A DNA stretch of 64,000 bases from an uncultured Elusimicrobia bacterium (GTDB taxonomy: Bacteria > Elusimicrobiota > Elusimicrobia > 2-01-FULL-59-12), in assembly GCA_963702895.1 (NCBI GenBank), contig OY969767.1, forward strand, positions 2,304,001 through 2,368,000, given 5' to 3'. The translations under genes and the position numbers were made by a program. The notes under the pieces were generated by a model. It was not told the DNA's origin and did no database searches. It saw only the letters and a program-made list of their open reading frames with translations. How positions within the stretch are numbered: the stretch's first letter is position 1; every line of letters begins with the position of its first letter. Positions 823-36,310 of the stretch are shown here, one piece after another.

Positions 823-2784
823 TCAAGCTGAAATCCACTCCCAGGCGGAATGGTGAGCCTCGCAGCGTTCGGCGTATTCCAGAAACCGGGCGTAAAAGGG
901 GTGACGGGCGAGCGTCGTGGAATCTCCCAGAACAATTAAAAGGCGGCGGGCGCGGGTCATGCCGACATTCATCCGACGCGTGTCTCCTAAAAAACCAACT
1001 TCTCCTTTGTCGTTGGAGCGAACGAGCGATAAGATAATGGCTTCTTTTTCCCTCCCCTGGTAACCGTCTATGGATCCAATTTCTATCCCCTCCTCCATCC
1101 CGGCCAACTGCCGCAAGAGCCGGGCCTGAGCGACGTAGGGGGTCAGAAGCGCCATCGATTTGGCTGGCACCCCTGAGCCGCGAAGTTCTTGATAGAGAGA
1201 CAACGCCAAGCGTGCTTCTCCTTCATTCTCTCGACTTTCCAAGAGCTCGTTCCAGGTTTCGTCATAGCCCGCGCCCGCGGTATCGATGAACATCAGGGGT
1301 TTCGACGTGAGGGTCGAGGGGGTAATGCCGGGCAATTCTTCGATGGTGTGATCGCGCACAGACTCGTCCGCCACGAGTTTCCCCTCATAGAGCTGTTGCG
1401 AAGGAAAACCCATGATCGTCTCGTGCATCCGGTATTGCACCCGAAGCAACGTCTGAACCTCTCGGGGGACAAGGCCCTGCAGACGTTCAAAGAGCGTGAG
1501 GCCCAGTCCTTGCTTTTTGGCCTCCTCCGAGTAGATGGTGGGCGGCAGCTGCAGGGAATCCCCCGCAAAGACAACCTTCTTCGCTTGCGTGATGGGGATC
1601 CAGGAGAGCGGTTCGGTGGCTTGCGAGGCTTCATCCATAATCAGGAGATCAAAAGGCTTCTTGGAGAGCGTCTTCGCAAGGCCCCCATGGGTGACGAGCA
1701 CCACATCCGCCGAAGCCACGATCCCTTTGCCGATGCCGTATTCCATATCACGCGCTTCCTGCCAGAGCGCGTTGATCTCTTTTTGCAGGGCGTGACGCTC
1801 ATCCCAACTGAGCCGGCGATCATGCGCGCGCTGGAGCTGCCGAACGAGATGCGCCCGCTGGACGTCCAACTCATCGATGAATTTTTGGTCCGGATGTTCA
1901 GCGACCTGGGCCGAGAGCGTCGCGTGCCGCAAGGAGTCGAGGATGCGGGCGGGGTGGCCCATTCGCACAACCTTAAGATCCGTGTCGAGCAGTTTCTCGA
2001 GCATGTTGTCGACCGCGATGTTCGAAGGGGCGGAGGCGAGGACCCGAGCCCCTCCCGCGATCGCATGACGGATGATTTCCACCAAAACCGTGGTTTTCCC
2101 TGTCCCGGGGGGACCATGCACGAGGGCGACGTCATGGGCGGCCAGGGCTTTCGCGACGGCTTCGCGCTGATACTGATTAAGCTTCTGGTTGAAGTATGTG
2201 CCCTCACCCGCACCAGCAGTTCGCCCTCTCCCGCCTTCGGCGGGAGAGGGTGGGGGTGAGGGCAAATCAAAAGTTGCGGGTTCGGCCCCCATGAAGATTT
2301 CTCTTAAGTGTGCGACTTCCTTCTTCTGAGCATGCTGGACGCTCGCGAGCACCTTCTTCATGCGCTTGTAGGTGGCCTCACTGCCCAGAACGTCCAGCTG
2401 GCATTTCCCTTGTGGCGGGGTCTCGAGGGCGGGAAGGCCCTCCAGCGCGACCGTGATCTCAAATTGGTCGACGTCATAGAGCGTCCCCTTGAACTTGGGC
2501 ACTTCAGGATCCTGGAAAGAGAGACTGACCAGATCTCCCTGGTTGAGTGCCTGAAACGGGGAATACTCCTCCCCATGGGAGGGCCGGGAGAGCACCCAGA
2601 GGACGTGGCTGCCGACGCCGTAGTCCTCGCGTGTGATCACGAGGCGGGTCACGGTCTTGCCCAGCGCCTCGCGTGCTTGCACGGGGAGCTTCTCCAGTTT
2701 TCTCTCGTTTTCCGAGCGCTCGGCTTCCCGTTCGATATCGATGAGCCTCAGAAGCTTTTCAAAATGTTCATCGTGCACGACCAT
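823..2784 (-). CDS. SF1B Upf1-like (IGHMBP2/DNA2-NAM7 family) helicase
   Basis: HGPPGTGKT, SAPSNIAVDN, DEASQ, GDSLQLPP, QYRM, DGYQGREK, NVGMTRAR motifs; in-frame repeat insert at 2199-2264. Confidence 0.92.
   Translation of the reverse strand: MVVHDEHFEKLLRLIDIEREAERSENERKLEKLPVQAREALGKTVTRLVITREDYGVGSHVLWVLSRPSHGEEYSPFQALNQGDLVSLSFQDPEVPKFKGTLYDVDQFEITVALEGLPALETPPQGKCQLDVLGSEATYKRMKKVLASVQHAQKKEVAHLREIFMGAEPATFDLPSPPPSPAEGGRGRTAGAGEGTYFNQKLNQYQREAVAKALAAHDVALVHGPPGTGKTTVLVEIIRHAIAGGARVLASAPSNIAVDNMLEKLLDTDLKVVRMGHPARILDSLRHATLSAQVAEHPDQKFIDELDVQRAHLVRQLQRAHDRRLSWDERHALQKEINALWQEARDMEYGIGKGIVASADVVLVTHGGLAKTLSKKPFDLLIMDEASQATEPLSWIPITQAKKVVFAGDSLQLPPTIYSEEAKKQGLGLTLFERLQGLVPREVQTLLRVQYRMHETIMGFPSQQLYEGKLVADESVRDHTIEELPGITPSTLTSKPLMFIDTAGAGYDETWNELLESRENEGEARLALSLYQELRGSGVPAKSMALLTPYVAQARLLRQLAGMEEGIEIGSIDGYQGREKEAIILSLVRSNDKGEVGFLGDTRRMNVGMTRARRLLIVLGDSTTLARHPFYARFLEYAERCEAHHSAWEWISA
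2199..2264. repeat. Palindromic repeat family A (CCCTCACCC / CCCTCTCCC..GGGAGAGGG), in frame within the helicase
   Basis: Outer stem tgccctcaccc/gggtgagggca, inner stem ccctctcccgcc/ggcgggagaggg; 66 bp = 22 codons. Confidence 0.85.
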
Positions 2785-23175: not shown

Positions 23176-24276
23176 TTATAACGCGAGGAGTTGTTCGAGG
23201 GCGGAGCTGTCAGCGTCCTTGGGAGCCGAGGGGTTGTCATCCATGCCCGCCGCGGCCGAGGCTTGCTTCATTTGCGCGTGACCAGGCACATCGAGATTTT
23301 CTCCGACAGGTCCAAACTTCACATGCAAGCTAAAGCGGTAAGCGTTGCCGAGTTCGCCGAAGGGAACCCAGGCAAAATCGATGATGCCCCGACCGAGGGA
23401 CAGACCCGATCCGATCGAAAGACCTTTCAATCCATCCACGTCGCTATCGGTCCGATATCCCGCTCGCACCGCATAGCCGAGATCGCTCGTCACCCGCCCG
23501 CGATATTCGGTTCCGAAAGCCGCTCCGATCTCGTGATCCCGCGGCATGATCAAGTCACTCGACACGAGCATCTTCCGTTCAAGCAGCGGCGCGCTCGCGC
23601 CGAGACGGTAGGTGAGCGGAAGGGGGTCGGACTCATCGATGAATTTCACCTTCGAACCCAGGTTTTGGAACGAAGCTCCCAGGCGAACATCGTGCCAGTC
23701 CGTGAGGTAGAGCAAGCCACCGTCAGCTGCAAAGGCATCGGCCTTGACCGAATCGAGCGTCTGCCGGATGTATTTGGCGCTCGCACCGAGGGAGAACCGC
23801 GAGGTCAGGCTCTTGCCATAGCTCAGACCATAAGCGCTGTCCGAAGCACTGAAGTCGCCGATGGGAGCGTCTGTGTCCTCGGTTCTTCGCTCCAGGTCGC
23901 TCATGTGCAAATTGGTGATGGCCACGGCCCAGGTGCCGTGAGAAGTGGTCGGCACGGCAAAAGCCGCAAACTCGTAGGCCATGTTTTGGAAATACTGCAT
24001 ATGCATGCCCGTGATTTCTGAATGCTTGAGCAGACCAAGTCCCGCCGGGTTCCAATAGAGGGCGTGAATGTCATCGGCGACACCCGTAAAGGCCTCGCCC
24101 ATGCCGACCGGACGCGCGCCGGGGGCAATCTTGAGGAAGGCGGCGCCGGAGGTCCCCGCATTGTCCTTGCCGAACGCAGCAACGGCTGACGGCGAAAATA
24201 GAGAATAGAAAATAGTTAGAGCCATCAAGACTCTATTGTCTATTCTCCATTTTCGCTGTTGGCCGTAACCGGTCAT
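23176..24276 (-). CDS. PorV/PorQ-family outer-membrane beta-barrel
   Basis: FLKIAPGARPVGMGEAF, ALYWNPAGL, QNLG..DPLP motifs; ATGA overlap with the upstream giant gene. Confidence 0.85.
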   Translation of the reverse strand: MTGYGQQRKWRIDNRVLMALTIFYSLFSPSAVAAFGKDNAGTSGAAFLKIAPGARPVGMGEAFTGVADDIHALYWNPAGLGLLKHSEITGMHMQYFQNMAYEFAAFAVPTTSHGTWAVAITNLHMSDLERRTEDTDAPIGDFSASDSAYGLSYGKSLTSRFSLGASAKYIRQTLDSVKADAFAADGGLLYLTDWHDVRLGASFQNLGSKVKFIDESDPLPLTYRLGASAPLLERKMLVSSDLIMPRDHEIGAAFGTEYRGRVTSDLGYAVRAGYRTDSDVDGLKGLSIGSGLSLGRGIIDFAWVPFGELGNAYRFSLHVKFGPVGENLDVPGHAQMKQASAAAGMDDNPSAPKDADSSALEQLLAL

Positions 24277-27200
24277 TTGATCACCGCCATCTTCCATGTC
24301 TTTTTGTGGTCGCCCACTTTGAGCAGCCCGACATAGACGCCCGACGCCACGTTGTTGCCGGAATCGTTTTTCCCGTCCCAAGCCACATAGTGATAGATGT
24401 CTTCGGAGGCGTTGCCCAAGTCAATCGAGCGGACCTTCTCGCCGACGACGTTAAAGATGTCGAGATGTGCGCGCCCCCCTTTGCCCGCCGGAAGGAGGTA
24501 ACGGACGATGGTGCCGGTTGTGTCCATCGTGCTCGTCGAGCCGCCGTGATTGAGCGTCTTGGTCTTCGCGGTCAGATCAAAGGGGTTCGGGAAATTGAAG
24601 ACTTTGATATCGGCGGCGGAGCCGCTGTCGCCGTCGGTGATGACCACGGGGAGGCTGTTTTGAAGAACGACAAAGGTGGAAAAGTGGCTGACGTTCACTG
24701 TGATCGTGCGGTTGACGGCATCGATGGTACGGTTGGCGTTCTCGATCAGATACTTGGAGCCATCAAAATAGTAGATGTTGATCGCGCTCGGGTCCGCTCC
24801 TGTGTCGTATTGAAGCGTGAGCGTCGCCGACTGGTTGAGCGTGTGGGAGAGCCCCGCCGGCAAGAGCACGCTGTAGAACGAGCTCAAGGGGTTGATCGTG
24901 GCTGAGGCATGCGCCGCTTTCATGGCTTGATAGGCCTCGGGGACATAAGCCGCTTCGCCGCGGGCGAGCTGGACCCCGAGCGCCGCCGCGCGCGCGCCGC
25001 GGCCGGCGCGCATGCCCGGCGCCTGCGCGGGCAAATCGGCGGCATCTTCCGTTGCCGTGAAACTGATGCCATAACTCGCATCGGCGTCGACGGCAGCCCC
25101 CTCCTCATCCAACAAGGCATTGGCCGGCAAATCGACGCCGGAGGGATCACCGGCGGATTCCGCCAGCGTCACTTCGCCGCCCAACACAGGGTTAATATTT
25201 TGTTCCGCGGACGCTCTCTGACCAAAGCGCAGGATGACGGATTTGGTGATCGGAAATTCATTGCCGGTGCTGGGATCGATGTCGACGGCAGAGCCGCTTA
25301 AACGCAGCGTGGCGGTCTGCTCCTCCGCCGGCGGCGTATAGAGAACACTCATGGTGCGGCGGTCGCCCCCGATCGCAAACGAGCTCAAGGCCCCATTGCC
25401 TGCGGTCACCGTGAGGAGGCTCGCCATGTCGTTATCCGCGGGCAGGACATTCCTCAACGCCCGGCTGAGATAGAACGTGGCCTCCACCGCGCTGCCGACC
25501 TTCTTTACCTGGACGTAGGCTGTCGGCGCGGAGGGCTGGTAGGTGAGCGTGAGGTTCTTCTCTTCTGAATCGCTCGAGAAAGCCAGGTTTCTGCCTTCGT
25601 TGGGCGAGGTGATGTTGTCACGATTATCGAAGAGAAGCACCGAGTAGCGCTTCGTGGAATCAAAACCGGAGAACCGGATCGACCGGATGGTCCGCGTGTG
25701 CTCGTCTTTCGAGATCTGGCCGAAGATGATCGTGCCAAGATCGGCCGTGACGGCGACGGCAAATTCAACATCCTCCGAGCTGACGTCCGAGCCGTCTGTT
25801 TTCTGCAATGTGGTGTTGAGGATGGCCCCTACCTGCAGCGTGATGGTGCCGGCGTTGTTGGATCCGGCTTCGATGGTGAAAGCGAATTTATGGGGTTTGT
25901 AGTTGAGCGAGACGACCTGCACGTCATACCGGCCCGGAACGAGGCTCGTGATGGAGAAGCTCCCGTCGAGATTGCTCGCCGCCTGGATGTCGCCCAGGGG
26001 ATTGTCGCCGGCCGTCGGCACACCCTGCTTTTGCAGATAGATCGCCGCCGCAGGATAACCCTGCTCTTTGTCTCCGTCGGGATAACCCAGAGGCCCGCTG
26101 TCCATGGTCAGGACCTGTCCGGAGAGCGACGCGTTGGCCCCCTCCAGCGTGAACGCCACCGTGGGCAGGGGGGTCTGCGTCACGTCGACGGCTTTTTTGA
26201 TGACCTGGCCGTAGGCGGAGGGCGGGGTGGTGTCGCCGATCCAGGGACGCGGGGCGGCGATGATGTCATAGGACTTCAGGTCAGGGTTGATGCCGCTCAG
26301 CGTAAACTGACCCGCCGTGTCCGTAAAGGTTTCGGCCTCGTTAGAGTAGTCGTGTTTGCCTGACGGGCGCGCGCGGACCCGGATGTTCGGCAGAGCGTTG
26401 CCGCTTGTATCCTCGACCGTACCGGTCAGGGAGAGCCCCTGTTTGAGCTCGATCGTGCCGAGGTCCGTCACCTGCCCTTCCGTCACGATGAGCTGCCCTT
26501 TGACATACGACGCCAGGCTCACGCTGCCCTCTCCCACGAAAGCGGCACCGAAGGAATCCTGCCGGAACTGCACATCGTAGGTGCCCGGAACGAGCCCGTC
26601 GATGTGGAACTGGTTGCTGGCGTTGATATCGACATGGAACCCCGTGGAGCTCGTCGACATGGAAGCTTCCTGATAGCCTCCCTCCACCCAGGGATTGGCC
26701 ATCGCCGCGATGCGGAAGTTGTTGGGCAGGACCGTGATGTTATTGGGCGTCACCAGGGTTGAGACCGGCTCCCCGTCGGGAGTTTTCCCGAGGATGGAGA
26801 GTTTCCCAATAATGCGGCTCGCGCGCGCCAGGGTGATGTTCAGAGCGGGGATATCAGCCCCATCAATTTCGAAAGTGGCGGGTTTGGCCGAATACTTGCG
26901 CGTCATCTGCATCAGGCTGGGGTCCCATGTCCCAGGATCACGGATGATCAGGGCGTAATTTCCCGAGGGCAGGTTCTTGAAGAGATAGGCGACGGAGGAC
27001 GCGGGACTGCCCGCGGAGCCAATTTGAAGTGAAGAGGATTGCACATAATCCCCCCGATCCGTGACGATGATGACTTCAAAAGTCCTGTGATCGGTGGCTC
27101 CCCCCGGCAGCGAGATCGTGCCGCCCACGCTGTTGCCCGCCGTCAGGCCGAAGTCGATGTCGGTTTTGTTGCCCGCGGTGATGGTCAGCGTCTGCCGGGT

Positions 27201-30200
27201 GACCGCCATGCTCGGCACCGTGCCGCCATCCAGGTACGGGAAGACGCTGACTTCCCACAAACCGGGCGTGATGCCCGGGATGACGTAACTGCCGTCCGCC
27301 TGGATCGCACCGTATTTGATGTCGGCGCCAAAAAAGGAGCTGTCGAATCCTCTCCGGCTGGCCCCGCCATACGAATGGAACTGCTTCGGGAAAGCTTCCA
27401 CGCGCGCGGTGGGAACGATCACGGGAATGCCGTTGATATAGAAATATTGTGTGGTCGCGTTCGACAGGAGCTCACTGATCGTATTGATCGTGACGGGTGT
27501 TCCGCTGGTCGGGGTGACGGTGAACGGCGACTGGATCGTCACGCTGCCGCTGATCACATAGGTCGGCGCGCTCAGATCAAGCTCCAGGGTGCTCGTCTGG
27601 CCATTCACGACCGCGATGGAGCGCCGCATGTGGGCGCCTGTTGTTCCATAAACGGCCGTGACATCGAAGAATCCGCTCCCAAGACGTGGAAGGGCGTAGG
27701 TCGCGCCGGCGGCCGCCACGCTGGTGCTGATCATCGGTCCGTTGACGGAGATGAACACCTGGTTGTAATCCACGCTGCCGCCGGGCAGCGTGATCGAACC
27801 GCCGATTTGGCCCGTATTTTCAGTGAGGAGCAAGTTCAATGTTCCAACACCGCCTGTGACGGTCGCGGATTTGGGGCCTGGGGGCGTCAGTTCAAAACCA
27901 GACACATAGGGTGGGTAGACCTGGTAGGTGCCGTCCGCCAGGCCGCCAATCTGATAAGAGCCGCTGGTGGAGGTGGCGCTCGTCGCGAGCGTCACCTGCG
28001 CGAATTCGCCGGAACCCAGCGACGGCGAATAAGCGTTGATCCAGAGGGACAGGCTTGGGGAGGCCGAGGTATCACCTTGCACCGTGATGGTGCCCGAGAT
28101 CTTGCCTCCCGTACTGAAGCTCGTGCTGGGGATGTCGAGACCACCGTTGATGAAATCGCCGATATCACTTCCGGTGACCGTGGTGGAAACGACGACGGGC
28201 AGGTACCCCTGGGCACGGATTTTGAACGAATAGTTGCCGGCGGGCACGTTATAAACCTGAAAGATGGCCGTGGATTGGCCGATCTCAAAATACGCGCCGC
28301 CCCATACCATCGGGGAGGTTTGGCCGGAGAGGATGCCTTCGACTGGAACCCACATGGAGTGATCGGTTGCCGCGGGCAGGGTGATCAGGCCAAAGACGTT
28401 GGCGGGACGCGTCAGGTTAAACACGGGCACATCGACCGTTTCCCCGGCGCTGACCGTCACCGTTTGCTGCATCGGCGGGAAGCTCGGCATGTGGAGCCGC
28501 ACCGTATAGGAGCCGGGCTGCGCGGCGATGATCGTCCACGTCGACGGATTGAAATAGTCCCCGTTGTCCGAGGTTGTGGAGCTCATCTGGAAACGGATGG
28601 AGCTCCAATAATTTTGTGAATAGTCCGCCGTATACGCATTCACCTGGCCAAAGAGCTGGAAGGGAGCGGCCTGGCTCAAGGTTGCCGCGACGCGGATTTT
28701 GGCCGGCCGGCTCACCGTGATATCCGCCGTGGCGGACGGCGCGGTGATGTTGAAAAGAGAGCCGGATACGGCGCTCATCGTATTCGGGTCGTAGAAGGAG
28801 ACTTGAAGGTGATAAGCTTGTCCGCTGGTCAGACCGTTGATCGAATAATTACCATTTCCATCGGTCATGGCCCCGCCAAAACCATAGCCGGATGTCGCAT
28901 TGGCATTGACCCAGACGTTCGCCATGGGGGTGGCGCCCAGTCGCACTTTCCCTGAGATGCTCGCACCCGAAACCGTGATGGACAAGCTGGTGTCCGGCGG
29001 CATGCCGGGGACCTCCATTCGCACCTGGTAGACGCCATTCGGAACAATCGCACTTCCAGACGGGCCAAACATGTTTCGGCCATCCCACTGCATGGTCCCG
29101 AACGGATCCCCCGTCCCCCAGCGCTCATAGACCCGGGTCACGAAGTTGTCGCTGGAGATTCGCACGCGCCAGGAGATGTCGTCGTCCGACGGCGTAAAGC
29201 GGATGAAGACATAGTCGTTCTCGCCGTCATTGTTGGGAGTGAGTGTAAAGGTGCTGGTCCCGGACCCCGCCATGCCGCTGTCCAGCGACGCGTCGGAGAA
29301 CGTGACAGCAGAGCTGAACACATGGACTTGCCTGGAAACGGAGGTGGGATGGCCGAACTGGATATCCAGATAGCTGGCGCGGATCGAAAGGTTGGTGCCC
29401 ACCGTGTTGGTCCGGTAGAAGAAGGAGCTTTGCGTGGCTCCCGTGGACAAGGTGACGGACGTGATCAGCGCCGAAAAGTCCGACGTTGCGGAAAACTCCG
29501 CGTTCGGATCGGTCGTGATATAGTCCGGCAGCAGTCCACTCAAGTCCATGACCACCGACCCCGCCACGGGAGCGATACTCCAGCAGCTTGACCGGCCTGT
29601 GACGGTAATCGTGGAGGAAGCCAGCCCGCTCACCACCGACAGGGGTTCCTGAGGCGTGAAGGAAATGCTGGCGGCGGTCGATACGATGATGGATTGCGCC
29701 GGCTGCGTGACGATATTCTGGAATGAGGCGCCCCCGGCCGAACGGCTGGACACTGTCCAATAGACCGTCGACTGCCCTGGAAGAGGGCACGGGCTCCACA
29801 ACCTGGAAATGAAGACCTGAATCGTGGCGCCGGCGGCGAGGGTCTGTCCGCTGTCCAGGGTCACCGCGACCGAAGCATCCGACATGGAGGGGGTCAGGGC
29901 GAGCGTTCTGGAAGGATTGCTCGCGGCCGCGACATGGCCCGGCATTCCCGGACTGGTCGTCTGTAAATACGGCCCCCATCCAAAGGGAAGCTGCACTTGG
30001 ACCCCGCCACCCGGGAAATAGTTGCCGCTGGGCACAATAAAGGTCATGGTCGCCGTTTGAACCATCGCGCCTTCCGCAAGGCTGGCCGGTACAAGGGTGG
30101 CCGCACCCTCTCCGGCGGAAATGCCGCCGGGGGATAACGTCCTCGTGCTGGCGATCGTTAGAAAATTCGTGGGGATACCATCTCCATTCCTGGCCCGAAC

Positions 30201-33197
30201 ACGGACGTAATAGGTGGTGAGCGGCGACAAATTGGTCAGCGTCGTCGTATTGGCCGTAAGCGCGGCGGCGAAGGTTACGGGCGTGCTCAGGCCCACCGTA
30301 AAGGAGCTATCAAGGGCCATGGAAATCTCATAGGGCGTATGATCGGGGTTGCTGCTCGTGCTCCACTTCACCGTGAAGGAGCTGGATCCGACGTCGGAAA
30401 CGGGAGTCATCGCCACCGCAGGCGTGTTCGCAAGCGTATAGACGGTCTTGCTGCTGGAAGGGCCCGTCTCCGTCCCGCCCGACCAGGCGGTGACCACGCG
30501 GCTATGGGACGAGTTGGAGACCAGACTGTTCTCCATATAGATCAGCGCGGCAAGATCGGTCGCAACGATCGTCGGGCTGGTCGCGTAGTACAGGGTATAG
30601 CCGGTGGCGCTCGGAGAGAGGTTCCAGGACCATTGGATGGAGGTCACGGCATTCGACACGCCCGTCAGGCCGGACGGAGGCGGCAGGCCGGCGCTCCACT
30701 GAATAAGGTTCGCCGTATCAAACCGTTCATTCGCATCCCCCGCGAGTGAGCCATTGGCGATGTAGTGGGTCCAGGACAACCCGACGCTCGATCCTAGGAT
30801 GGTAAAGTTGTAATTGGCATCGTTGAGCCGGGAGTTGCGATACGTGACGTTATCGAGGGTGATGGTGGACTCCGTGACATCCATCAGGGTGATCAAGGTG
30901 CTGGTGGACGATTGACCGGTTCCACTGAAGTCAAACGTGCTGTGCTCAATGGCGAAGGGGCCTGAACCGGACAACCAGATCCCCTGCTCGTCCATATTGG
31001 TGATGCTGGCGTAGCGCACGATAAAGGTGCCCGAATCGACGAAGCTGTAGTAGGTGCTGCCGGCGTCCAGGCCCCCCATGACGGAGGGATTGCTCATGGT
31101 GCCCGAGAGCTCAAAGGAGCCCGTTGGATCAATGGTGATTTTTGAGCGGCCGTTATTGAGTGAAGGCGCCACCGGCCCGAAAGTCATTTTTTTGCCGATG
31201 CCTGGATCGCTGGAGGCGCCCACCAGCAGAAATTCAACGCGGTCGTTGGCTTGGGGCGTGCCGGGGGTGAAGCTCAAGTAAAACTGCGGGTTCGCCGAAG
31301 GGATGGGCAGGCCGGATTGAGTACCCATGAAACTTCGCATGAAGCCGCTGATGCTTCCGGACACATTCCAAACGGCGCCCGTGTAGACGATGGTGATCCA
31401 CTGCGTCGTCGCGGTCAAGTCCTCCGTGGTGTCGATGCTCGCGGTGTGAATGCCTTGCGTGGCGATGGGATAGAAGGCGAACGAGCCATAGGTGGGTGAG
31501 GATGCGGCGACGGTGAGGGTCTCGCCGGAGATTTTTCGATAGCCCTGGAAACGGATGTTGCCATTGGAGCCATTCTGGTTGAACGACGTGATCCAGCTGT
31601 CTGGAATAGACAGGCCGGAAGAGTCAATCCCCGAGGCGGGATTGATCTTGGCCCCATGGAGTGTAAGACGTGAAGAAGACGAATTGCCAAAGCTGATTTC
31701 GGCCAGCGCATTCGCCGAGGCTGTTTCAATGGGCGTATAACCCAGCTTTCCCCCGACCCAGTCAATCGTTTGACCTCCGTCACTATAGAACCCGTACCCC
31801 GAATTCCCATAGACCGCGTTATTCCAGAACCCGTTTTGATTTCCAGAGATAAGCTTGATGCCGTCCGTGACCTTTGTGATGTCGTTGGAGGTCACGATAT
31901 TCCGGACCGCCGTCTCCAGATGAAGGCCGTCCTGCGTCATCACGCGGATGGTATTGGAAGAAACGAGATTATCGCCTGCGCCAAAAAGACCGATTCCGCC
32001 CTCGCCGGCATAGATGTCGTTATCTCGCACGGTGTTGTTGTCAGAATAATTCGCCGCCTGATTCGTCAGCCCGATACCGTAAAAGCCATGGTGCTGCATG
32101 ACGTTGCCAAGGATCTGGTTAAAGTCAGACGCTTGAAGCAGGATGGCGCCGTCAGGGTGAGAGAAGAAATGATTGTTGATCAGCCGGTTGTTGTCAGAAT
32201 TTGGCAGCAGTTCAATGCCCGAACTCTGCTGGTCATAGAAGACATTGCCGTTGATGAGACACCCGTCCGCGTTATCCAGCTGCAGCCCATCATCACCACC
32301 GCGGAACGTGGAACTCGAAATGTCCGCCCGGGATCCCGCGCCGCTGATTGTGAGGCCCTGTTTGCCTGTCATGCCGGTGCCGAGGTCCTTGAACTCCGTG
32401 GAAAAAGCGACAAAGTCTACCGGATTGGTGACGTAGCTGATCAGATAGGAAACATCGGCCGCGGGATTCGTCCCGGAGGAAGTGACCACCACGTTGCGGG
32501 TGAGATTGCCTATCGAAAGCGGGAAGTCGGAGTTGGGATAGCTGGCGGTGAGGGCCGGGGAGAAATCAATGGAACCCGCCGCCATGGATACGATGGTCAC
32601 GGCTTCCGTACCAATGACGATGGTGTCCCCAACAGACCAGTTCAAACCGGTGGTGTTCACGCTGATGGTGGTGTTGCCCGCCGAGACGCCGGCCAAGGCG
32701 ATCGCCGCGGGCGCTTTGCTCGCGCCATAGGAGGTGAATTTTCCGCCCGTGTTGACGATCAGGCCGAATTGCCCGGCGGTGGTTCCCGCCGCCAGCACCA
32801 ACTTCGCTTGATAGGCTGCGCTAATGGGCATCGCGCTGTATCCCATATCGAGCCATCCGCCTGAATTGACGGTGAGATCTCCGCCCACCAGGGTTAAAGA
32901 ACTGCTTTGGATCCGGCTGAATGAAAGCCTGCCTTCCACCGTCATCGTGCTGGCCGTCGCGGTATTGATGTCCACGGTGACGGTATGACCGGCATTGATG
33001 ATGACCTGATCGGATGCGGTTGGCACCGTGGCGGGAGTCCACGTGCCGGGACTCGACCAGTTGCCGCTGGCATCGCTGGAAATCGCGGCCGAGGCGTTCC
33101 CGCACACAAGGACCAGGATCAAGAGGAGGAGCGCGCCCATGGCGGCCGCTCTGTTTCCCCTGTTCTCTATCCCCTGTCCCCTGTTTTTAATACGCAT
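24273..33197 (-). CDS. Giant (2974 aa) secreted surface protein: G8-like, parallel beta-helix, FN3, carboxypeptidase-regulatory-like repeats, internal and C-terminal FlgD-Ig-like domains
   Basis: Signal peptide; GNWSSPGTW..VP; GIxL/N-rich beta-helix repeats; LSPLTTYYVRVRA; NFPNPF..WDGKNDSGNNVASGVY..KMAVIK. Confidence 0.85.
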   Translation of the reverse strand: MRIKNRGQGIENRGNRAAAMGALLLLILVLVCGNASAAISSDASGNWSSPGTWTPATVPTASDQVIINAGHTVTVDINTATASTMTVEGRLSFSRIQSSSLTLVGGDLTVNSGGWLDMGYSAMPISAAYQAKLVLAAGTTAGQFGLIVNTGGKFTSYGASKAPAAIALAGVSAGNTTISVNTTGLNWSVGDTIVIGTEAVTIVSMAAGSIDFSPALTASYPNSDFPLSIGNLTRNVVVTSSGTNPAADVSYLISYVTNPVDFVAFSTEFKDLGTGMTGKQGLTISGAGSRADISSSTFRGGDDGLQLDNADGCLINGNVFYDQQSSGIELLPNSDNNRLINNHFFSHPDGAILLQASDFNQILGNVMQHHGFYGIGLTNQAANYSDNNTVRDNDIYAGEGGIGLFGAGDNLVSSNTIRVMTQDGLHLETAVRNIVTSNDITKVTDGIKLISGNQNGFWNNAVYGNSGYGFYSDGGQTIDWVGGKLGYTPIETASANALAEISFGNSSSSRLTLHGAKINPASGIDSSGLSIPDSWITSFNQNGSNGNIRFQGYRKISGETLTVAASSPTYGSFAFYPIATQGIHTASIDTTEDLTATTQWITIVYTGAVWNVSGSISGFMRSFMGTQSGLPIPSANPQFYLSFTPGTPQANDRVEFLLVGASSDPGIGKKMTFGPVAPSLNNGRSKITIDPTGSFELSGTMSNPSVMGGLDAGSTYYSFVDSGTFIVRYASITNMDEQGIWLSGSGPFAIEHSTFDFSGTGQSSTSTLITLMDVTESTITLDNVTYRNSRLNDANYNFTILGSSVGLSWTHYIANGSLAGDANERFDTANLIQWSAGLPPPSGLTGVSNAVTSIQWSWNLSPSATGYTLYYATSPTIVATDLAALIYMENSLVSNSSHSRVVTAWSGGTETGPSSSKTVYTLANTPAVAMTPVSDVGSSSFTVKWSTSSNPDHTPYEISMALDSSFTVGLSTPVTFAAALTANTTTLTNLSPLTTYYVRVRARNGDGIPTNFLTIASTRTLSPGGISAGEGAATLVPASLAEGAMVQTATMTFIVPSGNYFPGGGVQVQLPFGWGPYLQTTSPGMPGHVAAASNPSRTLALTPSMSDASVAVTLDSGQTLAAGATIQVFISRLWSPCPLPGQSTVYWTVSSRSAGGASFQNIVTQPAQSIIVSTAASISFTPQEPLSVVSGLASSTITVTGRSSCWSIAPVAGSVVMDLSGLLPDYITTDPNAEFSATSDFSALITSVTLSTGATQSSFFYRTNTVGTNLSIRASYLDIQFGHPTSVSRQVHVFSSAVTFSDASLDSGMAGSGTSTFTLTPNNDGENDYVFIRFTPSDDDISWRVRISSDNFVTRVYERWGTGDPFGTMQWDGRNMFGPSGSAIVPNGVYQVRMEVPGMPPDTSLSITVSGASISGKVRLGATPMANVWVNANATSGYGFGGAMTDGNGNYSINGLTSGQAYHLQVSFYDPNTMSAVSGSLFNITAPSATADITVSRPAKIRVAATLSQAAPFQLFGQVNAYTADYSQNYWSSIRFQMSSTTSDNGDYFNPSTWTIIAAQPGSYTVRLHMPSFPPMQQTVTVSAGETVDVPVFNLTRPANVFGLITLPAATDHSMWVPVEGILSGQTSPMVWGGAYFEIGQSTAIFQVYNVPAGNYSFKIRAQGYLPVVVSTTVTGSDIGDFINGGLDIPSTSFSTGGKISGTITVQGDTSASPSLSLWINAYSPSLGSGEFAQVTLATSATSTSGSYQIGGLADGTYQVYPPYVSGFELTPPGPKSATVTGGVGTLNLLLTENTGQIGGSITLPGGSVDYNQVFISVNGPMISTSVAAAGATYALPRLGSGFFDVTAVYGTTGAHMRRSIAVVNGQTSTLELDLSAPTYVISGSVTIQSPFTVTPTSGTPVTINTISELLSNATTQYFYINGIPVIVPTARVEAFPKQFHSYGGASRRGFDSSFFGADIKYGAIQADGSYVIPGITPGLWEVSVFPYLDGGTVPSMAVTRQTLTITAGNKTDIDFGLTAGNSVGGTISLPGGATDHRTFEVIIVTDRGDYVQSSSLQIGSAGSPASSVAYLFKNLPSGNYALIIRDPGTWDPSLMQMTRKYSAKPATFEIDGADIPALNITLARASRIIGKLSILGKTPDGEPVSTLVTPNNITVLPNNFRIAAMANPWVEGGYQEASMSTSSTGFHVDINASNQFHIDGLVPGTYDVQFRQDSFGAAFVGEGSVSLASYVKGQLIVTEGQVTDLGTIELKQGLSLTGTVEDTSGNALPNIRVRARPSGKHDYSNEAETFTDTAGQFTLSGINPDLKSYDIIAAPRPWIGDTTPPSAYGQVIKKAVDVTQTPLPTVAFTLEGANASLSGQVLTMDSGPLGYPDGDKEQGYPAAAIYLQKQGVPTAGDNPLGDIQAASNLDGSFSITSLVPGRYDVQVVSLNYKPHKFAFTIEAGSNNAGTITLQVGAILNTTLQKTDGSDVSSEDVEFAVAVTADLGTIIFGQISKDEHTRTIRSIRFSGFDSTKRYSVLLFDNRDNITSPNEGRNLAFSSDSEEKNLTLTYQPSAPTAYVQVKKVGSAVEATFYLSRALRNVLPADNDMASLLTVTAGNGALSSFAIGGDRRTMSVLYTPPAEEQTATLRLSGSAVDIDPSTGNEFPITKSVILRFGQRASAEQNINPVLGGEVTLAESAGDPSGVDLPANALLDEEGAAVDADASYGISFTATEDAADLPAQAPGMRAGRGARAAALGVQLARGEAAYVPEAYQAMKAAHASATINPLSSFYSVLLPAGLSHTLNQSATLTLQYDTGADPSAINIYYFDGSKYLIENANRTIDAVNRTITVNVSHFSTFVVLQNSLPVVITDGDSGSAADIKVFNFPNPFDLTAKTKTLNHGGSTSTMDTTGTIVRYLLPAGKGGRAHLDIFNVVGEKVRSIDLGNASEDIYHYVAWDGKNDSGNNVASGVYVGLLKVGDHKKTWKMAVIK

Positions 33198-34506
33198 AGC
33201 TGAATCCCATCAAATAGTTCTGTGAGTTAAAGTGATACTGATACAGTTGGCTGTACGTGTTGTTGGAATCACTCCACCCAAAGCCCGAGGTCGCCTTGAC
33301 CTGGAAGTTCCGAGCGATGGGGTATGACACCGTGAGCCCCGCGCTCACGTAATCCACGTCAGTCGTGTCGGTCCCATAGGCCCCGGAACTGTCTTGCACG
33401 AGCCTGTCCGTATAGCTTTGACGTGAGACCGCGCCGCTCACGTTCACCGTCAACGGAGCAGGCCCAAGCAGAAGAGTCCAGTCATTCTTCAGAGCGTTGG
33501 TCACGTAGGAGTAATAATTCGGGTTGTAGAACGTGCGTGAGGCGTCATAGTGGTTCTGATTGGAGAAGAGGTGTGTGCGGCTGTACCCCAGCGAAGAGAA
33601 GATCCGGAACCCCAGGCCGTCCAAGATCGGCCACGTTCCCATGAGGGAGAGCGTCTCGATGCGGTCATCCCGAAGATCCGCGACGAGGCTTCCGGAGGCA
33701 TCCACGAGGTGTTGGTCAGGAAACGACGTCCAGGTATTCGAAAACGCCGCCTCAAGCAACCCATTTCCAGGAACGGTGAATTGGGACCCCAAGGTGAGCA
33801 TGTGGTTTTGGGTGTTGTGCACGTCCGGCGCGTTGAATTCCCTCCCCTGACCCACAGAAGCCGCCTCTGAGGAAAGGCTCTGATAATTGGGGAAATCAAT
33901 CCTAAAGTAGTCATAAGCGAAGCGGACGAAATTGTCTTTCTTCCAGAACCACTCGGATTCGGCGCCTGCGGAGAGGCGCCGGTTGTCATAGAGACCGTCT
34001 CCCCAGTCTTCATCCTCTGTTTCGCGTAAGAATTCGGAACCATAGCCGGTGACGGCCTTGAGCCTTAGGCCATTCTCGAAAGAACGGATCCCCTTCACCG
34101 ATATATTGTGGTTCTGAGAATCTTGGAACAGGGTTCCTCCACCGATCAAGTCCTGGACTTGCTTGGTTCCCTGATACACGCCGCTGTATAAAGGAACGAG
34201 ACTCCACTGGTCGTTGAATTTCATGAAGGGAGAGGCGATCAGCGACGCGAAGCCGCCAAAGGAGCTCTCGGCCCCTTGGTAAAAGTCCTGCCCGCCTAAA
34301 AGTTGCGCCTGAACCACCGGTTTCACCTCAACGGCCATGGCCGCATTTGCGAACACAAAGACACTGGCTGTCACCCCGGCGAACGCCGGGGTCCATCGAT
34401 TACATCTATGATGGATTCCGTCCCCATCCTTAGATCTCAGAGGAAGGGACAGTCCCCCGGACGTAAGGGGGACGGCTTTCGCCGGAATGACGTCACGACT
34501 CATCAT
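33187..34506 (-). CDS. Hypothetical outer-membrane beta-barrel protein
   Basis: Signal-like ASVFVFANAAMA; aromatic-rich amphipathic strands; C-terminal YLMGFSYAY; overlaps both neighbours. Confidence 0.7.
   Translation of the reverse strand: MMSRDVIPAKAVPLTSGGLSLPLRSKDGDGIHHRCNRWTPAFAGVTASVFVFANAAMAVEVKPVVQAQLLGGQDFYQGAESSFGGFASLIASPFMKFNDQWSLVPLYSGVYQGTKQVQDLIGGGTLFQDSQNHNISVKGIRSFENGLRLKAVTGYGSEFLRETEDEDWGDGLYDNRRLSAGAESEWFWKKDNFVRFAYDYFRIDFPNYQSLSSEAASVGQGREFNAPDVHNTQNHMLTLGSQFTVPGNGLLEAAFSNTWTSFPDQHLVDASGSLVADLRDDRIETLSLMGTWPILDGLGFRIFSSLGYSRTHLFSNQNHYDASRTFYNPNYYSYVTNALKNDWTLLLGPAPLTVNVSGAVSRQSYTDRLVQDSSGAYGTDTTDVDYVSAGLTVSYPIARNFQVKATSGFGWSDSNNTYSQLYQYHFNSQNYLMGFSYAY
34370..34492. repeat. 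Family B repeat carrying a nested 52-bp TCCCC..GGGGA element
   Basis: gtcaccccggcgaacgccggggtcca..tggattccg [34421-34472] cggctttcgccggaatgac. Confidence 0.8.
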
Positions 34507-36173
34507 TGAATCAATCCGCTCTTGATGAAGATCTTGGGTTCGACCACCAGGTCGATTTTCCGTCCCTCAAATTCTGTCGCCGTGATTTGCTGCTCGTAAT
34601 TCCACTTCAAAAGCTCTTCCTTATATTGGGCCCCGGTGGAGGCGCCCGAAAAAGCGCTCAAGGGGGCGATGGCCCCGCTGTCGTCAATGAGGACCGTGCG
34701 GTAGCTCTCGAACGTTCCATCGCCGTAATAATGGGTGACCGTCGCGTCGATATTGTTCGCGTCGACCGAGACCACCGGCAGGACAAAGCCGCCGGCGTAA
34801 TTCCAGGTCGCATCCAGGGGGTTCGCCAGGGTGTTGGCCGCACCGGACTTCGTGTAGTTGATCTTGGTGACGTCATTGATCGCGTGGGTGTAGCTGTTGA
34901 ACCGGCCCTTCCAGAATGTGTCGCCACTCGAAAGATTTTTGAAACTGTCACTCTCGGGCACAAAGACCCCAATCTGGGTGGCGCTGGGCAACTGGGCCTC
35001 CGTCACGGTGGAGAAGCTGTCCGCGAGAGGGTGATAAACCTTGTAGGTCCCATCGAGCTGGAGCTCCGAAGCGGCGACGGTCCTCGTATTGGTCGGATCC
35101 GCGGCATCGGTGAGAACGTAATTGCCGGAGCCGTCGACCTCAATTTTCACAAGATGCCCGCCCGTCGCTGTATCGTGGATGGAATCACGGGTATTGGACT
35201 GCCCCATCTCATAGGAGGTGAGGAAGTAGTCGGGAGCGGTCTCGCCGAGTTTTCCGGACAGGTCTTTGAGGGCAACCGAGAGATCCACGGGCAGGGGTTG
35301 ATTGAACGTTCCTTTATAGAAGTAATAATCGAGCTGGTCATTGCGCTCGTTCAGAACAACAAATTTGAAAGAGTCCGGCGTGGTCCGGACGATGTACTCA
35401 TCGAGCCTGACGCGGCGGCCTTCCACGTCGACGAGGCTTTTCCCCTCCGTATAGTCCGCGTAGCGCCGCTCCATCGCCGCGGCCGCGATCACGGCATTGC
35501 GGTCCATGTCGAGCCCGACTTCATGCCTGGCCTCATGGGCGAGCGCATTGTCAGTCTTTTTCCGCGTGTCCTGCGGGATGGGCCGAGGCCGTTCAATTGA
35601 TCCGTTCCTGACGCTGGTCATTTGGCCCGCGGGAACCCTGATTTCATCCTGCGTTCCCGGGATGGCGACCCCCACCACCCCGTGATAAACAGAGACCAGA
35701 GTCCCCCCGTCCCCTGTTACCGTGTCAAATTCGGTCCCGCGCACGGCGCAAACGGCGGTCGGCGTTTGGACGGAGAATTTCTCCAGACCTTTTAGTGTTT
35801 TGACCTTGGAGATGAGGCGGCCTTTGTCCAGATAGGCTTTCGTATCTCCGTCTTGCAGTGACTTGAATTGAAGGCTGGAGTCCGCTTTGACGACGAAATG
35901 ATGACCTTCCGCCGTCACGATGTCGACGGTTGAGTGAGATCCCGTGCGGAAGATGGACCCCTCTTCCACCCGTTCTCCGGGGGAAACCACGCGCCACTGA
36001 AGAGCGCCCGGCGCGCGCATGTCGACCGTGCCCCGCACATCATCCACTTTGGCGGAGGCCGCAAAGCTCGCCGCCGCGGGGGATAAGCCCAGACATAAAA
36101 AAAGCAAGCGCTTCACCCAAAAAGCGGCGAATCGCTTGCGCCGAACTTCCGATACCTTTAAAGATGCCCTCAT
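34503..36173 (-). CDS. Secreted FecR-domain protein with uncharacterised C-terminal domain (alternative GTG start at 36116)
   Basis: FRTG, FSVQTPTAVCAVRGTEF, VSVYHGVV FecR motifs; signal peptide. Confidence 0.82.
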   Translation of the reverse strand: MRASLKVSEVRRKRFAAFWVKRLLFLCLGLSPAAASFAASAKVDDVRGTVDMRAPGALQWRVVSPGERVEEGSIFRTGSHSTVDIVTAEGHHFVVKADSSLQFKSLQDGDTKAYLDKGRLISKVKTLKGLEKFSVQTPTAVCAVRGTEFDTVTGDGGTLVSVYHGVVGVAIPGTQDEIRVPAGQMTSVRNGSIERPRPIPQDTRKKTDNALAHEARHEVGLDMDRNAVIAAAAMERRYADYTEGKSLVDVEGRRVRLDEYIVRTTPDSFKFVVLNERNDQLDYYFYKGTFNQPLPVDLSVALKDLSGKLGETAPDYFLTSYEMGQSNTRDSIHDTATGGHLVKIEVDGSGNYVLTDAADPTNTRTVAASELQLDGTYKVYHPLADSFSTVTEAQLPSATQIGVFVPESDSFKNLSSGDTFWKGRFNSYTHAINDVTKINYTKSGAANTLANPLDATWNYAGGFVLPVVSVDANNIDATVTHYYGDGTFESYRTVLIDDSGAIAPLSAFSGASTGAQYKEELLKWNYEQQITATEFEGRKIDLVVEPKIFIKSGLIQ

Positions 36174-36310
36174 ACTGATTTGGCAGCCCCACTATCCCCG
36201 ATCCAGGGACTGGAAGCTTTGCGTACACACCCTTGTTGCCAACCCGCCGTGACTGCACCGGAGGGCCCGCCAGCGTCTCCATGGCGGGGGGGTAGCCTTT
36301 AACAATCAGT
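36174..36310 (-). ncRNA. Cyclic di-GMP-I (GEMM)-like riboswitch with expanded P2
   Basis: AAAGGC..ACGCAAAGCUUCCAGUCCC..GGGAUAGUGGGGCUGCC matches the conserved GEMM core; P1 ACUGAUUG/CA(A)AUCAGU. Confidence 0.75.

Follow-up and report, generated by a model that had tools for sequence, protein, structure and literature searches.

A candidate c-di-GMP-I riboswitch with a probable REP-like twin-hairpin repeat in its P2 hairpin, abutting the start codon of a FecR gene in an Elusimicrobia genome

In a 64-kb stretch of the genome of an uncultured Elusimicrobia bacterium (contig OY969767.1, positions 2,304,001 to 2,368,000; hereafter the window), a 137-nucleotide (nt) RNA element lies on the minus strand, reading from 36310 to 36174 in window coordinates, directly upstream of a gene for a FecR-domain protein. 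This element is probably a riboswitch of the cyclic di-GMP (c-di-GMP)-I class (GEMM-I; clan CL00126) with translational control, its P2 hairpin holding an inserted repeat that resembles REP/REPIN elements and is probably a passenger. In the mechanism that we propose, the aptamer would constitute essentially the entire 5′ leader of a cluster encoding FecR, a giant surface protein and a PorV-like protein, and a 46-47-nt twin-hairpin repeat would have inserted into the 5′ strand of an ordinary GNRA-capped P2. P2 would thereby become a four-way junction, with stacking of the GCAA tip on the lower stem still possible. The window copy of the repeat appears old and partly decayed, and it would most likely be a tolerated passenger, its practical effect being to push the aptamer under annotation thresholds. 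P1, stabilized by c-di-GMP, and the folded aptamer would hinder access of the 30S subunit from their place at −1 of the AUG, giving an OFF switch. Throughout, G000 stands for the window's genome (2.72 Mb), G001 to G003 and so on for related genomes, and L-numbers for loci; G000b and G000c are two other c-di-GMP-I-like aptamers of the window's genome.

At Rfam gathering thresholds, no match was found across the whole window. A cmscan of 501 nt on both strands nevertheless aligned all 80 positions of the RF03167 (c-di-GMP-I-GGC) model to 36306-36178, covering both P1 and P3, at 32.9 bits (cut-off 59; E 5.7e-6); the only large deviation from the model was a 53-nt insertion in the first hairpin. 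With RF01051 (c-di-GMP-I), the site was the best match in the 2.72-Mb genome (31.3 bits vs. a cut-off of 35; E 3.2e-4). The initial annotation, whose minus-strand sequence is present as quoted at 36310-36171, had proposed a c-di-GMP-I-type aptamer that would score poorly in standard models, and both points are borne out by these alignments and by the orthologues described below. As far as can be judged from sequence, the element is a full-length c-di-GMP-I-type aptamer by its core features, and fails only the curated Rfam score. It carries ACGCAAAGC in place of the RF03167 consensus ACGCGAAGC and scores far under that model's cut-off, and is therefore not classed as a member of RF03167.

Orthologues of the element are present in G003 (same genus) and G009 (same family), in each case 4-5 nt, counted from the end of the aptamer model, upstream of a FecR-domain gene with a similar N-terminus. 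The G009 element (contig C99) scored 43.7 bits, over the RF01051 cut-off; the window's own orthologue in G003 (C384) scored 29.8 bits, below it, and has no P2 insert but a different insertion in P3. The other two aptamers of the window's genome reached 23.9 and 23.0 bits, leaving none of the three at cut-off, and their orthologues in G002 (C263, 41.4 bits) and G003 (C92, 39.7 bits) are both over it. Overall, RF01051 matches were seen in 46 of 61 related genomes and exceeded the cut-off in 41 of the 61. The core motifs are missing from a fourth weak match in the window's genome (C1:2010619-2010690, 18.9 bits, E 0.34), which was not counted. A pattern scan of genome and metagenome contigs for the long-P2 form returned 10 loci, of which only two are real (L090, a contig of G001, and L093); in the remaining eight, the 3′ half is missing and the match looks like chance. 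One 261-nt contig of a relative, assembled from two DNA sequencing runs, covers 35968-36228 only and ends short of P2.

The features of the element are collected in Table 1. The 5′ strand of P1 is followed by UUAAAGGC and then by about 72 nt that separate the paired GC from ACGC; the P3 side, ending ..AUAGUGGGGCUGCC, reaches to 36182, and the end of P3 reads ..AUAGUGGGGCU. Every pair of the proposed structure is a standard pair (a check of P1, the P2 base, the P2 tip and P3). P1 has counterparts in both FecR orthologues (CUGAUUG/CAA-C-UCAG in G003 and CAG..UCG/CGA..CUG in G009), and the block GGGUGNGUNCGCAAAGC is common to the window, G000b, G001, G002 and L093.

The P2 hairpin had been described in the initial annotation as multibranched, its usual simple form replaced by about 70 nt that can form three hairpins. 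The multibranched form and all three hairpins are there, the second with one U x C mismatch, but P2 has not been replaced: a normal GCAA-capped hairpin is interrupted by 47 nt. Starting from the paired GC, the order is U, ACCC, C, hairpin 1, hairpin 2, UUG-GCAA-CAA, GGGU, GUGUAC and GC. The 3′ strand of P2, CAAGGG(U), is unbroken, the 5′ strand is split by the 47 nt into CCC and UUG, and removal of 36289-36243 leaves a perfect 6-bp hairpin, CCCUUG-GCAA-CAAGGG.

The same anatomy recurs in the genome's two other aptamers and in two relatives, four insert-bearing sequences having been compared both by reading and by script. G000b reads CCCU/AA-GUAA-UUAGGG around a 46-nt insert of two 23-nt hairpins (CCCUAA-GUAA-UUAGGG without it), and G000c reads CC/CGUC-GUAA-GACGGG around a 40-nt insert of two 20-nt hairpins (CCCGUC-GUAA-GACGGG without it), the slash marking the insertion site; all three c-di-GMP-I aptamers of the genome thus have a twin hairpin at the same P2 site. 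P2 inserts also interrupt G001 (CCUC/GA-GUAA-UUGGGG) and the metagenome locus L093 (CC/CCGG-GUAA-CCGGGG). The tips vary in sequence (AA-GUAA-UU, GA-GUAA-UU and CCGG-GUAA-CCGG; CCUCUGG-GCAA-CCAGGG in G003). In minimum free energy (MFE) folds of the isolated P2, the four-way junction formed in four of nine insert bearers (window, L093, G000c and G019) and a partial junction in G000b, other folds being obtained for G001, G008a, G010b and G058.

P3 loops have been colonized as well, by single CGCCA-type hairpins in G000c and L093. The P3 loop of G000b holds a near-perfect foldback of about 80 nt made of 8-nt tandem units (CUCAGAAC/CUCAGAGC; L082 ~1215-1300, minus strand, G000:C1 ~73970-74050), which gave spurious microRNA matches in Rfam, and a related GAGAGCAGAAAGCAGAGA stretch is found in the P3 loop of the FecR aptamer of G003.

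The P2 inserts of this genome appear to belong with a repeat dispersed through it. The pattern CGCCA-N5-10-TGGCG occurs 183 times in the genome vs. 34 times for the reversed control, and 18 strict tandem pairs have their hairpins 2-6 nt apart. A profile built from 17 non-riboswitch genomic pairs, with the riboswitch copy left out, identified 40 loci at E<1e-3, each matching on both strands at similar scores, as expected of an inverted doublet. With a looser pattern, the number of twin hairpins rose to 70; they fall into at least two subfamilies, distinguished by loops of 9 nt or 6 nt, and the insert of G000c is of the 6-nt kind. In pair tables of 40 copies, the stems are preserved by compensatory change (outer pair C-G, U-A or G-C; CGCGCCA/UGGCGCG, CCCUCCA/UGGAGGG). 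The copies lie mostly outside long frames: as judged without a proper gene caller at 41 sites, the longest open frame around a copy had a median of 143 aa vs. 433 aa at 2000 random sites, and 32% of copies vs. 74% of random sites fell in frames of at least 300 aa. Several of the long-frame copies sit upstream of the real start, and the leaders of genes for very large secreted proteins hold several copies.

When the profile was run against 14 aptamers (2044 nt), it matched the P2 inserts of four, those of G001 (1.2e-14), L093 (5.5e-13), G000b (7.5e-13) and the window (2.1e-4); the other ten gave no match except a non-significant one in G000c (E 0.16). In size (2 x 23 nt) and in its site within P2, the window insert agrees with the clear copies of G000b, G001 and L093. 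We conclude that it is probably a decayed, degenerate member of the dispersed repeat, by its profile match, size and site, and one that sequence alone would miss genome-wide. The label of a structurally novel aptamer, which the initial annotation had applied, is not supported by these findings, the extra arms being most likely a copy of a dispersed repeat that is missing from the same-genus orthologue.

Counts of the twin pattern, given as forward plus reverse strand, fall from 18+22 in G000 (0+1 for the control) to 11+10 in G001, 6+8 in G002 and 2+1 in G003, most other families of the class having 0-3 on each strand. The repeat-rich genomes are those whose riboswitches carry the repeat, a pattern that fits an expansion of the repeat family in part of the genus and its entry into aptamers. 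The three aptamers of the window's genome and that of G001 all have same-genus orthologues free of P2 inserts (G003:C384 for the window, G002:C263 for G000b and G001, and G003:C92 for G000c).

The genome's only Y1_Tnp (IS200/RAYT-type) signal (L099, G000:C1:390719-390889) is a match to model positions 10-64 of 121; it lies in an 89-aa frame and has no twin hairpin adjoining. A tRNA-like sequence just upstream of an intact tRNA-Arg(TCG) (L098 1871-1965, G000:C1:1653371-1653465) has an Arg-type acceptor and D arm and an intact anticodon stem. Its anticodon loop holds a 46-nt twin hairpin, its T arm is broken, and the sequence was not called by ARAGORN and looks like a remnant invaded by the repeat. 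The idea that this twin hairpin is a tRNA intron was set aside on the same two grounds, the lack of an ARAGORN call and the broken T arm, there being no evidence of splicing at this locus. For many twin hairpins, the flanking sequence is GAATCG/GGATTT to one side and CGAACC/GAACC to the other (e.g. C1:907744, 909344, 1175938, 1394791 and 2184201). These flanks read like the two halves of an opposite-strand tRNA T arm, a hint that the insertion target is T-loop-like or that the carriers derive from tRNAs. A loose pattern, AAGGC..CGCCA..TGGCG, matched 189 of 401 genomes of the phylum, mostly by chance, and was uninformative and not used.

Arms in P2 are not confined to the window's genus, and the twin-hairpin form is seen again, with hairpins of unrelated sequence, in other families of the Elusimicrobiota. 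Among 46 aptamers that we read, picked by length or orthology so that the fractions are not prevalences, nine carry two hairpins in the P2 5′ strand, 2-4 bp below the GNRA loop (window, G001, G000b, L093, G000c, G008a, G010b, G058 and G019), three carry two hairpins on the P2 3′ side (G007, G010a and G008b), and 34 have a simple P2 with extra length in P3. In three other genera (G007, G010 and G008), aptamers upstream of a small secreted protein (L068, L069 and L079) show a different multibranched form, in which two extra hairpins, conserved across genera, separate the GAC of the P2 internal loop from the closing GC.

A number of observations weigh against a passenger insertion in a working c-di-GMP-I aptamer. 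The element falls under both Rfam cut-offs, and we take G36297, A36220 and C36183 to be the equivalents of G20, A47 and C92 from Vc2 numbering and a presumed column mapping. The window copy of the repeat is weakly recognizable, at 12.6 bits and E 0.28 genome-wide, the genome-wide match covering hairpin 1 only and the match among the 14 aptamers hairpin 1 and the start of hairpin 2, and a search of the genome found no clear mobilizing enzyme, only the partial Y1_Tnp match (23.3 bits). The same architecture and P2 site are seen in G008/G010, G058 and G019, where the arm sequences are not dispersed repeats, and the arms of G008a and G010b share 76% identity between two genera; this conservation, together with the non-repeat arms, favors retention or function over passive passengers. 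All three aptamers of the genome have been struck at nearly the same few bases, far above random insertion: from 70 twin hairpins, a non-coding share of about 10% and a 3 x 6-nt target, about 0.005 insertions would be expected vs. three seen, in a rough calculation that is not a formal test, as tolerance and selection bias the survivors. Either the element prefers such a P2 site or arms there are retained as useful. Lastly, the strong 8-bp P1 already forms in the unconstrained fold, which puts the extent of its ligand dependence in question.

The strongest competing explanation, which we nonetheless consider rather unlikely, is that the four-way-junction P2 is a selected functional variant with domesticated arms, of mobile-repeat origin or not, that are needed for proper switching. 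Such arms could serve as a folding scaffold replacing the tetraloop receptor, as a protein-binding site or as a second input. The nine aptamers with 5′-strand arms span three gene contexts and three families (f1, f10 and f14), and the presence and absence of arms among orthologues implies at least five separate origins. The arms of G008a and G010b are unique in their own genomes and show compensatory changes at the tip, those of G019 are likewise unique in their genome, hairpin 2 of the window keeps six of seven pairs though its closing pair has changed from A-U to G-C, and the window's P3 has no evident tetraloop receptor. Yet the same-genus orthologues of all three loci lack arms and two of the three are over the Rfam cut-off, the arms in G000, G001 and L093 are plain copies of a repeat that is mostly located elsewhere, and the repeat matches both strands equally, like a palindrome acting at the DNA level. 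The broader proposal, in which twin-hairpin repeats prefer or are kept at the P2 5′ strand, were acquired at least five times in Elusimicrobiota and became working parts of an aptamer subclass with a four-way junction, we regard as similarly doubtful.

Less probable still, and by a good distance, is a decaying, non-functional riboswitch in which the repeat broke P2 and the leader is now just a structured 5′ end. The sub-threshold score and the mismatch in hairpin 2 would agree with decay, as would the fold energies: the comparative structure has −41.9 kcal/mol vs. a minimum of −53.8, placing it 11.9 kcal/mol above the MFE. Single-sequence folding against shuffles gave no thermodynamic signal for the window (z −0.11), G001 (−1.70) or G003 (0.08). 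Thermodynamics alone is thus unsupportive, and the evidence for the element is therefore comparative. On the other side, the strongly conserved junction nucleotides are all intact, P1, the P2 base, the P2 tip and P3 are all still fully paired, and the arrangement recurs in both remaining aptamers of the genome as well as in G001 and L093. It is the insert that has decayed and not the core, which argues for continued selection on the core. The idea that the hairpin loops pair with each other or with P1, in kissing or competing interactions, was dropped, as only 3-4-nt matches were found and these are not conserved.

A passenger insertion in a functional aptamer remains the reading that we prefer, and its ligand is expected to be c-di-GMP. 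The Rfam structure line shows the first G of GGC as unpaired, the next GC as paired with the GC of ACGC, and the GC after P3 as unpaired. The corresponding unpaired junction columns of the window hold G36297, A36220 (the A after ACGC) and C36183 (the C of the GC after P3), i.e. the canonical G, A and C at the positions mapped to G20, A47 and C92. According to two papers, G20 pairs with one guanine of c-di-GMP and C92 with the other, and the phosphate of A47 touches the ligand (PMC5888326, PMC6140456), while sensors of cyclic GMP-AMP (cGAMP) have an A instead of G20 (PMC6140456). The GEMM-Ib 3′,3′-cGAMP riboswitches (e.g. Geobacter Gs1761) share the fold family, and variants at the G20 equivalent occur in the window's bacterial class, with A (AAUAGC) in G025b, G015b, G015e, G019 and G032 and C (AAACGC) in G008b; a difference at the ligand base would therefore be visible in the window if present. 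The window reads AAAG-GC, unlike the AAUA-GC of its A-type relatives, keeping G where cGAMP sensors carry A (PMC6140456), and on this base it is not a GEMM-Ib member. The A- and C-type aptamers (L086, L087, L137, L143 and L145; L079) are themselves candidate cGAMP-type or otherwise altered sensors in Elusimicrobiota.

A change of GGCAAA to GGCUAC, singled out in the initial annotation, is present, but it belongs to the ordinary variation of the P2 internal loop and, like the extra branches, gives no sign of a new ligand: relatives have GGCAUC, GGCUUC, GGCAGC, GGCACA and GGCAAC, several of them over the Rfam cut-off. A change of ligand, to 3′,3′-cGAMP as the annotation had suggested or to another dinucleotide, with GGCUAC and the remodeling of P2 as part of the change, could draw on the variant model RF03167 being the best Rfam match, on a P2 internal loop that departs from the AAA/GAC consensus and on the A and C variants in the class, but is the least probable of the explanations considered, given the canonical G and the retained equivalents of A47 and C92, the presence of ACGCAAAGC and not ACGCGAAGC, and the same internal-loop variants in relatives that exceed the RF01051 cut-off.

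We lean towards regulation at translation initiation. The 3′ strand of P1 ends at the base before the AUG, as the initial annotation had stated, leaving no room for a separate expression platform or for a Shine-Dalgarno sequence between aptamer and start codon, so that translation initiation is the most likely point of control. The 3′ end of 16S rRNA (the anti-Shine-Dalgarno) is canonical, and Shine-Dalgarno cores peak at −14 to −9, at about 26% of crudely called starts. Among relatives, the start codon lies 0-8 nt downstream of the aptamer in 17 of the 24 examined (16 of 23 without L093, whose end was set by hand), three of these 17 starts being GTG or TTG, and the adjacency of P1 and start codon holds in all three FecR orthologues; other members of the class have terminator hairpins instead. 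Within translational control, an OFF switch is our best guess and would be favored over an ON switch, with an ON effect through protection of the 5′ end as a live alternative. A terminator-like hairpin at 36126-36109 (minus strand), within codons 16-27 of the FecR gene, was rejected as an expression platform: one such hairpin was found vs. 0.9 expected in shuffles, and its U-run consists of Leu/Phe codons of the signal peptide.

The initial annotation had also placed a promoter at the 5′ end of P1, and the sequence there, TTGACG-17-TAAACA, is promoter-like and kept in position and spacing in the two orthologues (TTGACT-17-TAAACA in G003 and TTGAAG-17-TATAAG in G009), which points to a likely promoter. 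A sigma-70 scanner, which demands T at position 6 of the second hexamer, did not call it. About 20 nt upstream of the −35-like box, a block CTTTT(A/T)ACACGAATTTACG (36385-36365, minus strand) recurs almost unchanged in G003 and is partly conserved in G009, and could be an UP-like element or the site of a regulator.

Compared with known systems, the element is like RF01051 and its representative Vc2 (Vibrio cholerae) in its three-helix junction, its core of AAAGGC, ACGCAAAGC and AG-bulge-GGGG..CC, its mapped contact bases, its GNRA loop on P2 and its location upstream of surface or adhesion-type genes. It differs in its score below gathering, in the four-way junction that the 47-nt insert makes of P2, in an internal loop of UA/GUGUAC vs. 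AAA/GAC, in a short P3 in which the cmscan alignment shows no receptor-like motif, the GCAA loop being kept on the P2 tip, and in having P1 abut the AUG with no separate expression platform. With RF03167, the best-scoring Rfam model, it shares the short, receptor-less P3, but it differs in its core block, as set out above. The GGC in that model's name we take to denote three binding-site bases.

REP, BIME and REPIN elements are repetitive extragenic palindromes mobilized by RAYT Y1 transposases. The insert resembles them as a short, GC-rich, imperfect palindrome arranged in inverted doublets, with dozens of copies mostly outside long frames, compensated stems and a copy number that differs sharply between close relatives. 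Unlike them, it is only 46 nt long, no clear RAYT gene was found in the genome, and several of its copies are located within genes for structured RNAs or what remains of them (P2 and P3 of riboswitches, and a tRNA-like remnant). SAM-II and preQ1-II are translational riboswitches without a separate expression platform, the aptamer overlapping the ribosome-binding region. As in these, the 3′ strand of a ligand-stabilized helix would reach the start region, so that binding and ribosome access compete; unlike in these, the helix stops at −1 of the AUG, with no Shine-Dalgarno sequence taking part.

In the literature covered, which excluded most subscription papers and so is no proof of absence, no report was found of a dispersed palindromic repeat inside a riboswitch aptamer, nor of c-di-GMP riboswitches in Elusimicrobia. 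Reviews, in the parts available, mention only T-box-like motifs within BOX elements. A genome scored by standard Rfam as lacking c-di-GMP-I riboswitches would have three, hidden by repeat insertions in P2 or P3, and riboswitch counts in repeat-rich uncultured lineages may be too low. Peripheral riboswitch helices can apparently take up mobile hairpin DNA with their cores kept, a plausible route to new RNA arms; if the arms were working parts, mobile hairpin DNA would here be documented to have added new structure to a riboswitch. Three kinds of cell-surface gene appear to be under c-di-GMP control in this Elusimicrobiota family, namely the FecR/giant beta-helix/PorV-like cluster, a small secreted protein and UPF0164/PorV-like outer-membrane proteins, by way of compact leaders made up of nothing but the aptamer, whose P1 has the start codon at its base.

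Table 1. Features of the element and of the genes downstream, in window coordinates.
Feature	Position	Strand	Remarks
Promoter-like boxes TTGACG (36345-36340), 17-nt spacer, TAAACA (36322-36317)	36345-36317	-	predicted; −10 box ends 6 nt before P1
P1 5′ strand ACUGAUUG	36310-36303	-	8 bp with 36182-36174, one bulged A; cmscan P1 columns; all pairs standard
Junction UUAAAG + GC	36302-36295	-	G36297 is the unpaired first G of GGC; GC 36296-36295 pairs with GC 36222-36221; cmscan alignment and structure line
AAAGGC	36300-36295	-	core motif
Lower P2 stem, 5′ strand ACCC	36293-36290	-	pairs with GGGU 36232-36229; predicted in MFE fold of P2 segment
P2 insert, 47 nt (one C + two 23-nt hairpins)	36289-36243	-	repeat-profile match, size and site; no counterpart in G003 orthologue
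Hairpin 1, CCCGCCA-UGGAGACGC-UGGCGGG	36288-36266	-	N9 loop
Hairpin 2, CCCUCCG-GUGCAGUCA-CGGCGGG	36265-36243	-	N9 loop; one U x C mismatch
P2 tip UUG-GCAA-CAA	36242-36233	-	retained GNRA-capped end, predicted to stack on lower stem
P2 internal loop 3′ side GUGUAC, paired GC, A36220 in ACGCAAAGC	36228-36216	-	cmscan alignment
ACGCAAAGC	36224-36216	-	core block
P3 AGCU-U-CCAGUCCC, loop, GGGGAU-AG-UGGGGCU	36218-36185	-	short; no evident tetraloop receptor; pairs checked, standard
GC (including C36183) + P1 3′ strand CAAAUCAGU (36182-36174)	36184-36174	-	final base directly precedes start codon
AUG start codon	36173-36171	-	opens 556-aa frame
FecR-domain protein, 556 aa, secreted	36173-34503	-	open reading frame list; Pfam FecR 9.1e-13
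439-aa protein	33187-34506	-	open reading frame list; no Pfam match
2974-aa protein	24273-33197	-	Pfam: G8, beta-helix/NosD, fn3, several CarboxypepD_reg, C-terminal FlgD_ig
PorV/UPF0164-like outer-membrane protein, 401 aa	23176-24381	-	Pfam

Directly after P1 begins a four-gene surface-protein cluster of 13.0 kb (36173 to 23176), in agreement with the 13-kb operon of the initial annotation. All four genes share one strand, each frame overlapping or abutting the next, and they are probably co-transcribed. Type IX secretion has, to our knowledge, not been established in the Elusimicrobiota phylum; the succession of a beta-helix/CarboxypepD_reg/FlgD_ig protein and a PorV-like protein at 23176-33197 (minus strand) resembles a type IX secretion cargo with its shuttle. 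The other two aptamers of the genome precede genes for a 167-aa secreted protein and a UPF0164/PorV-like outer-membrane protein.

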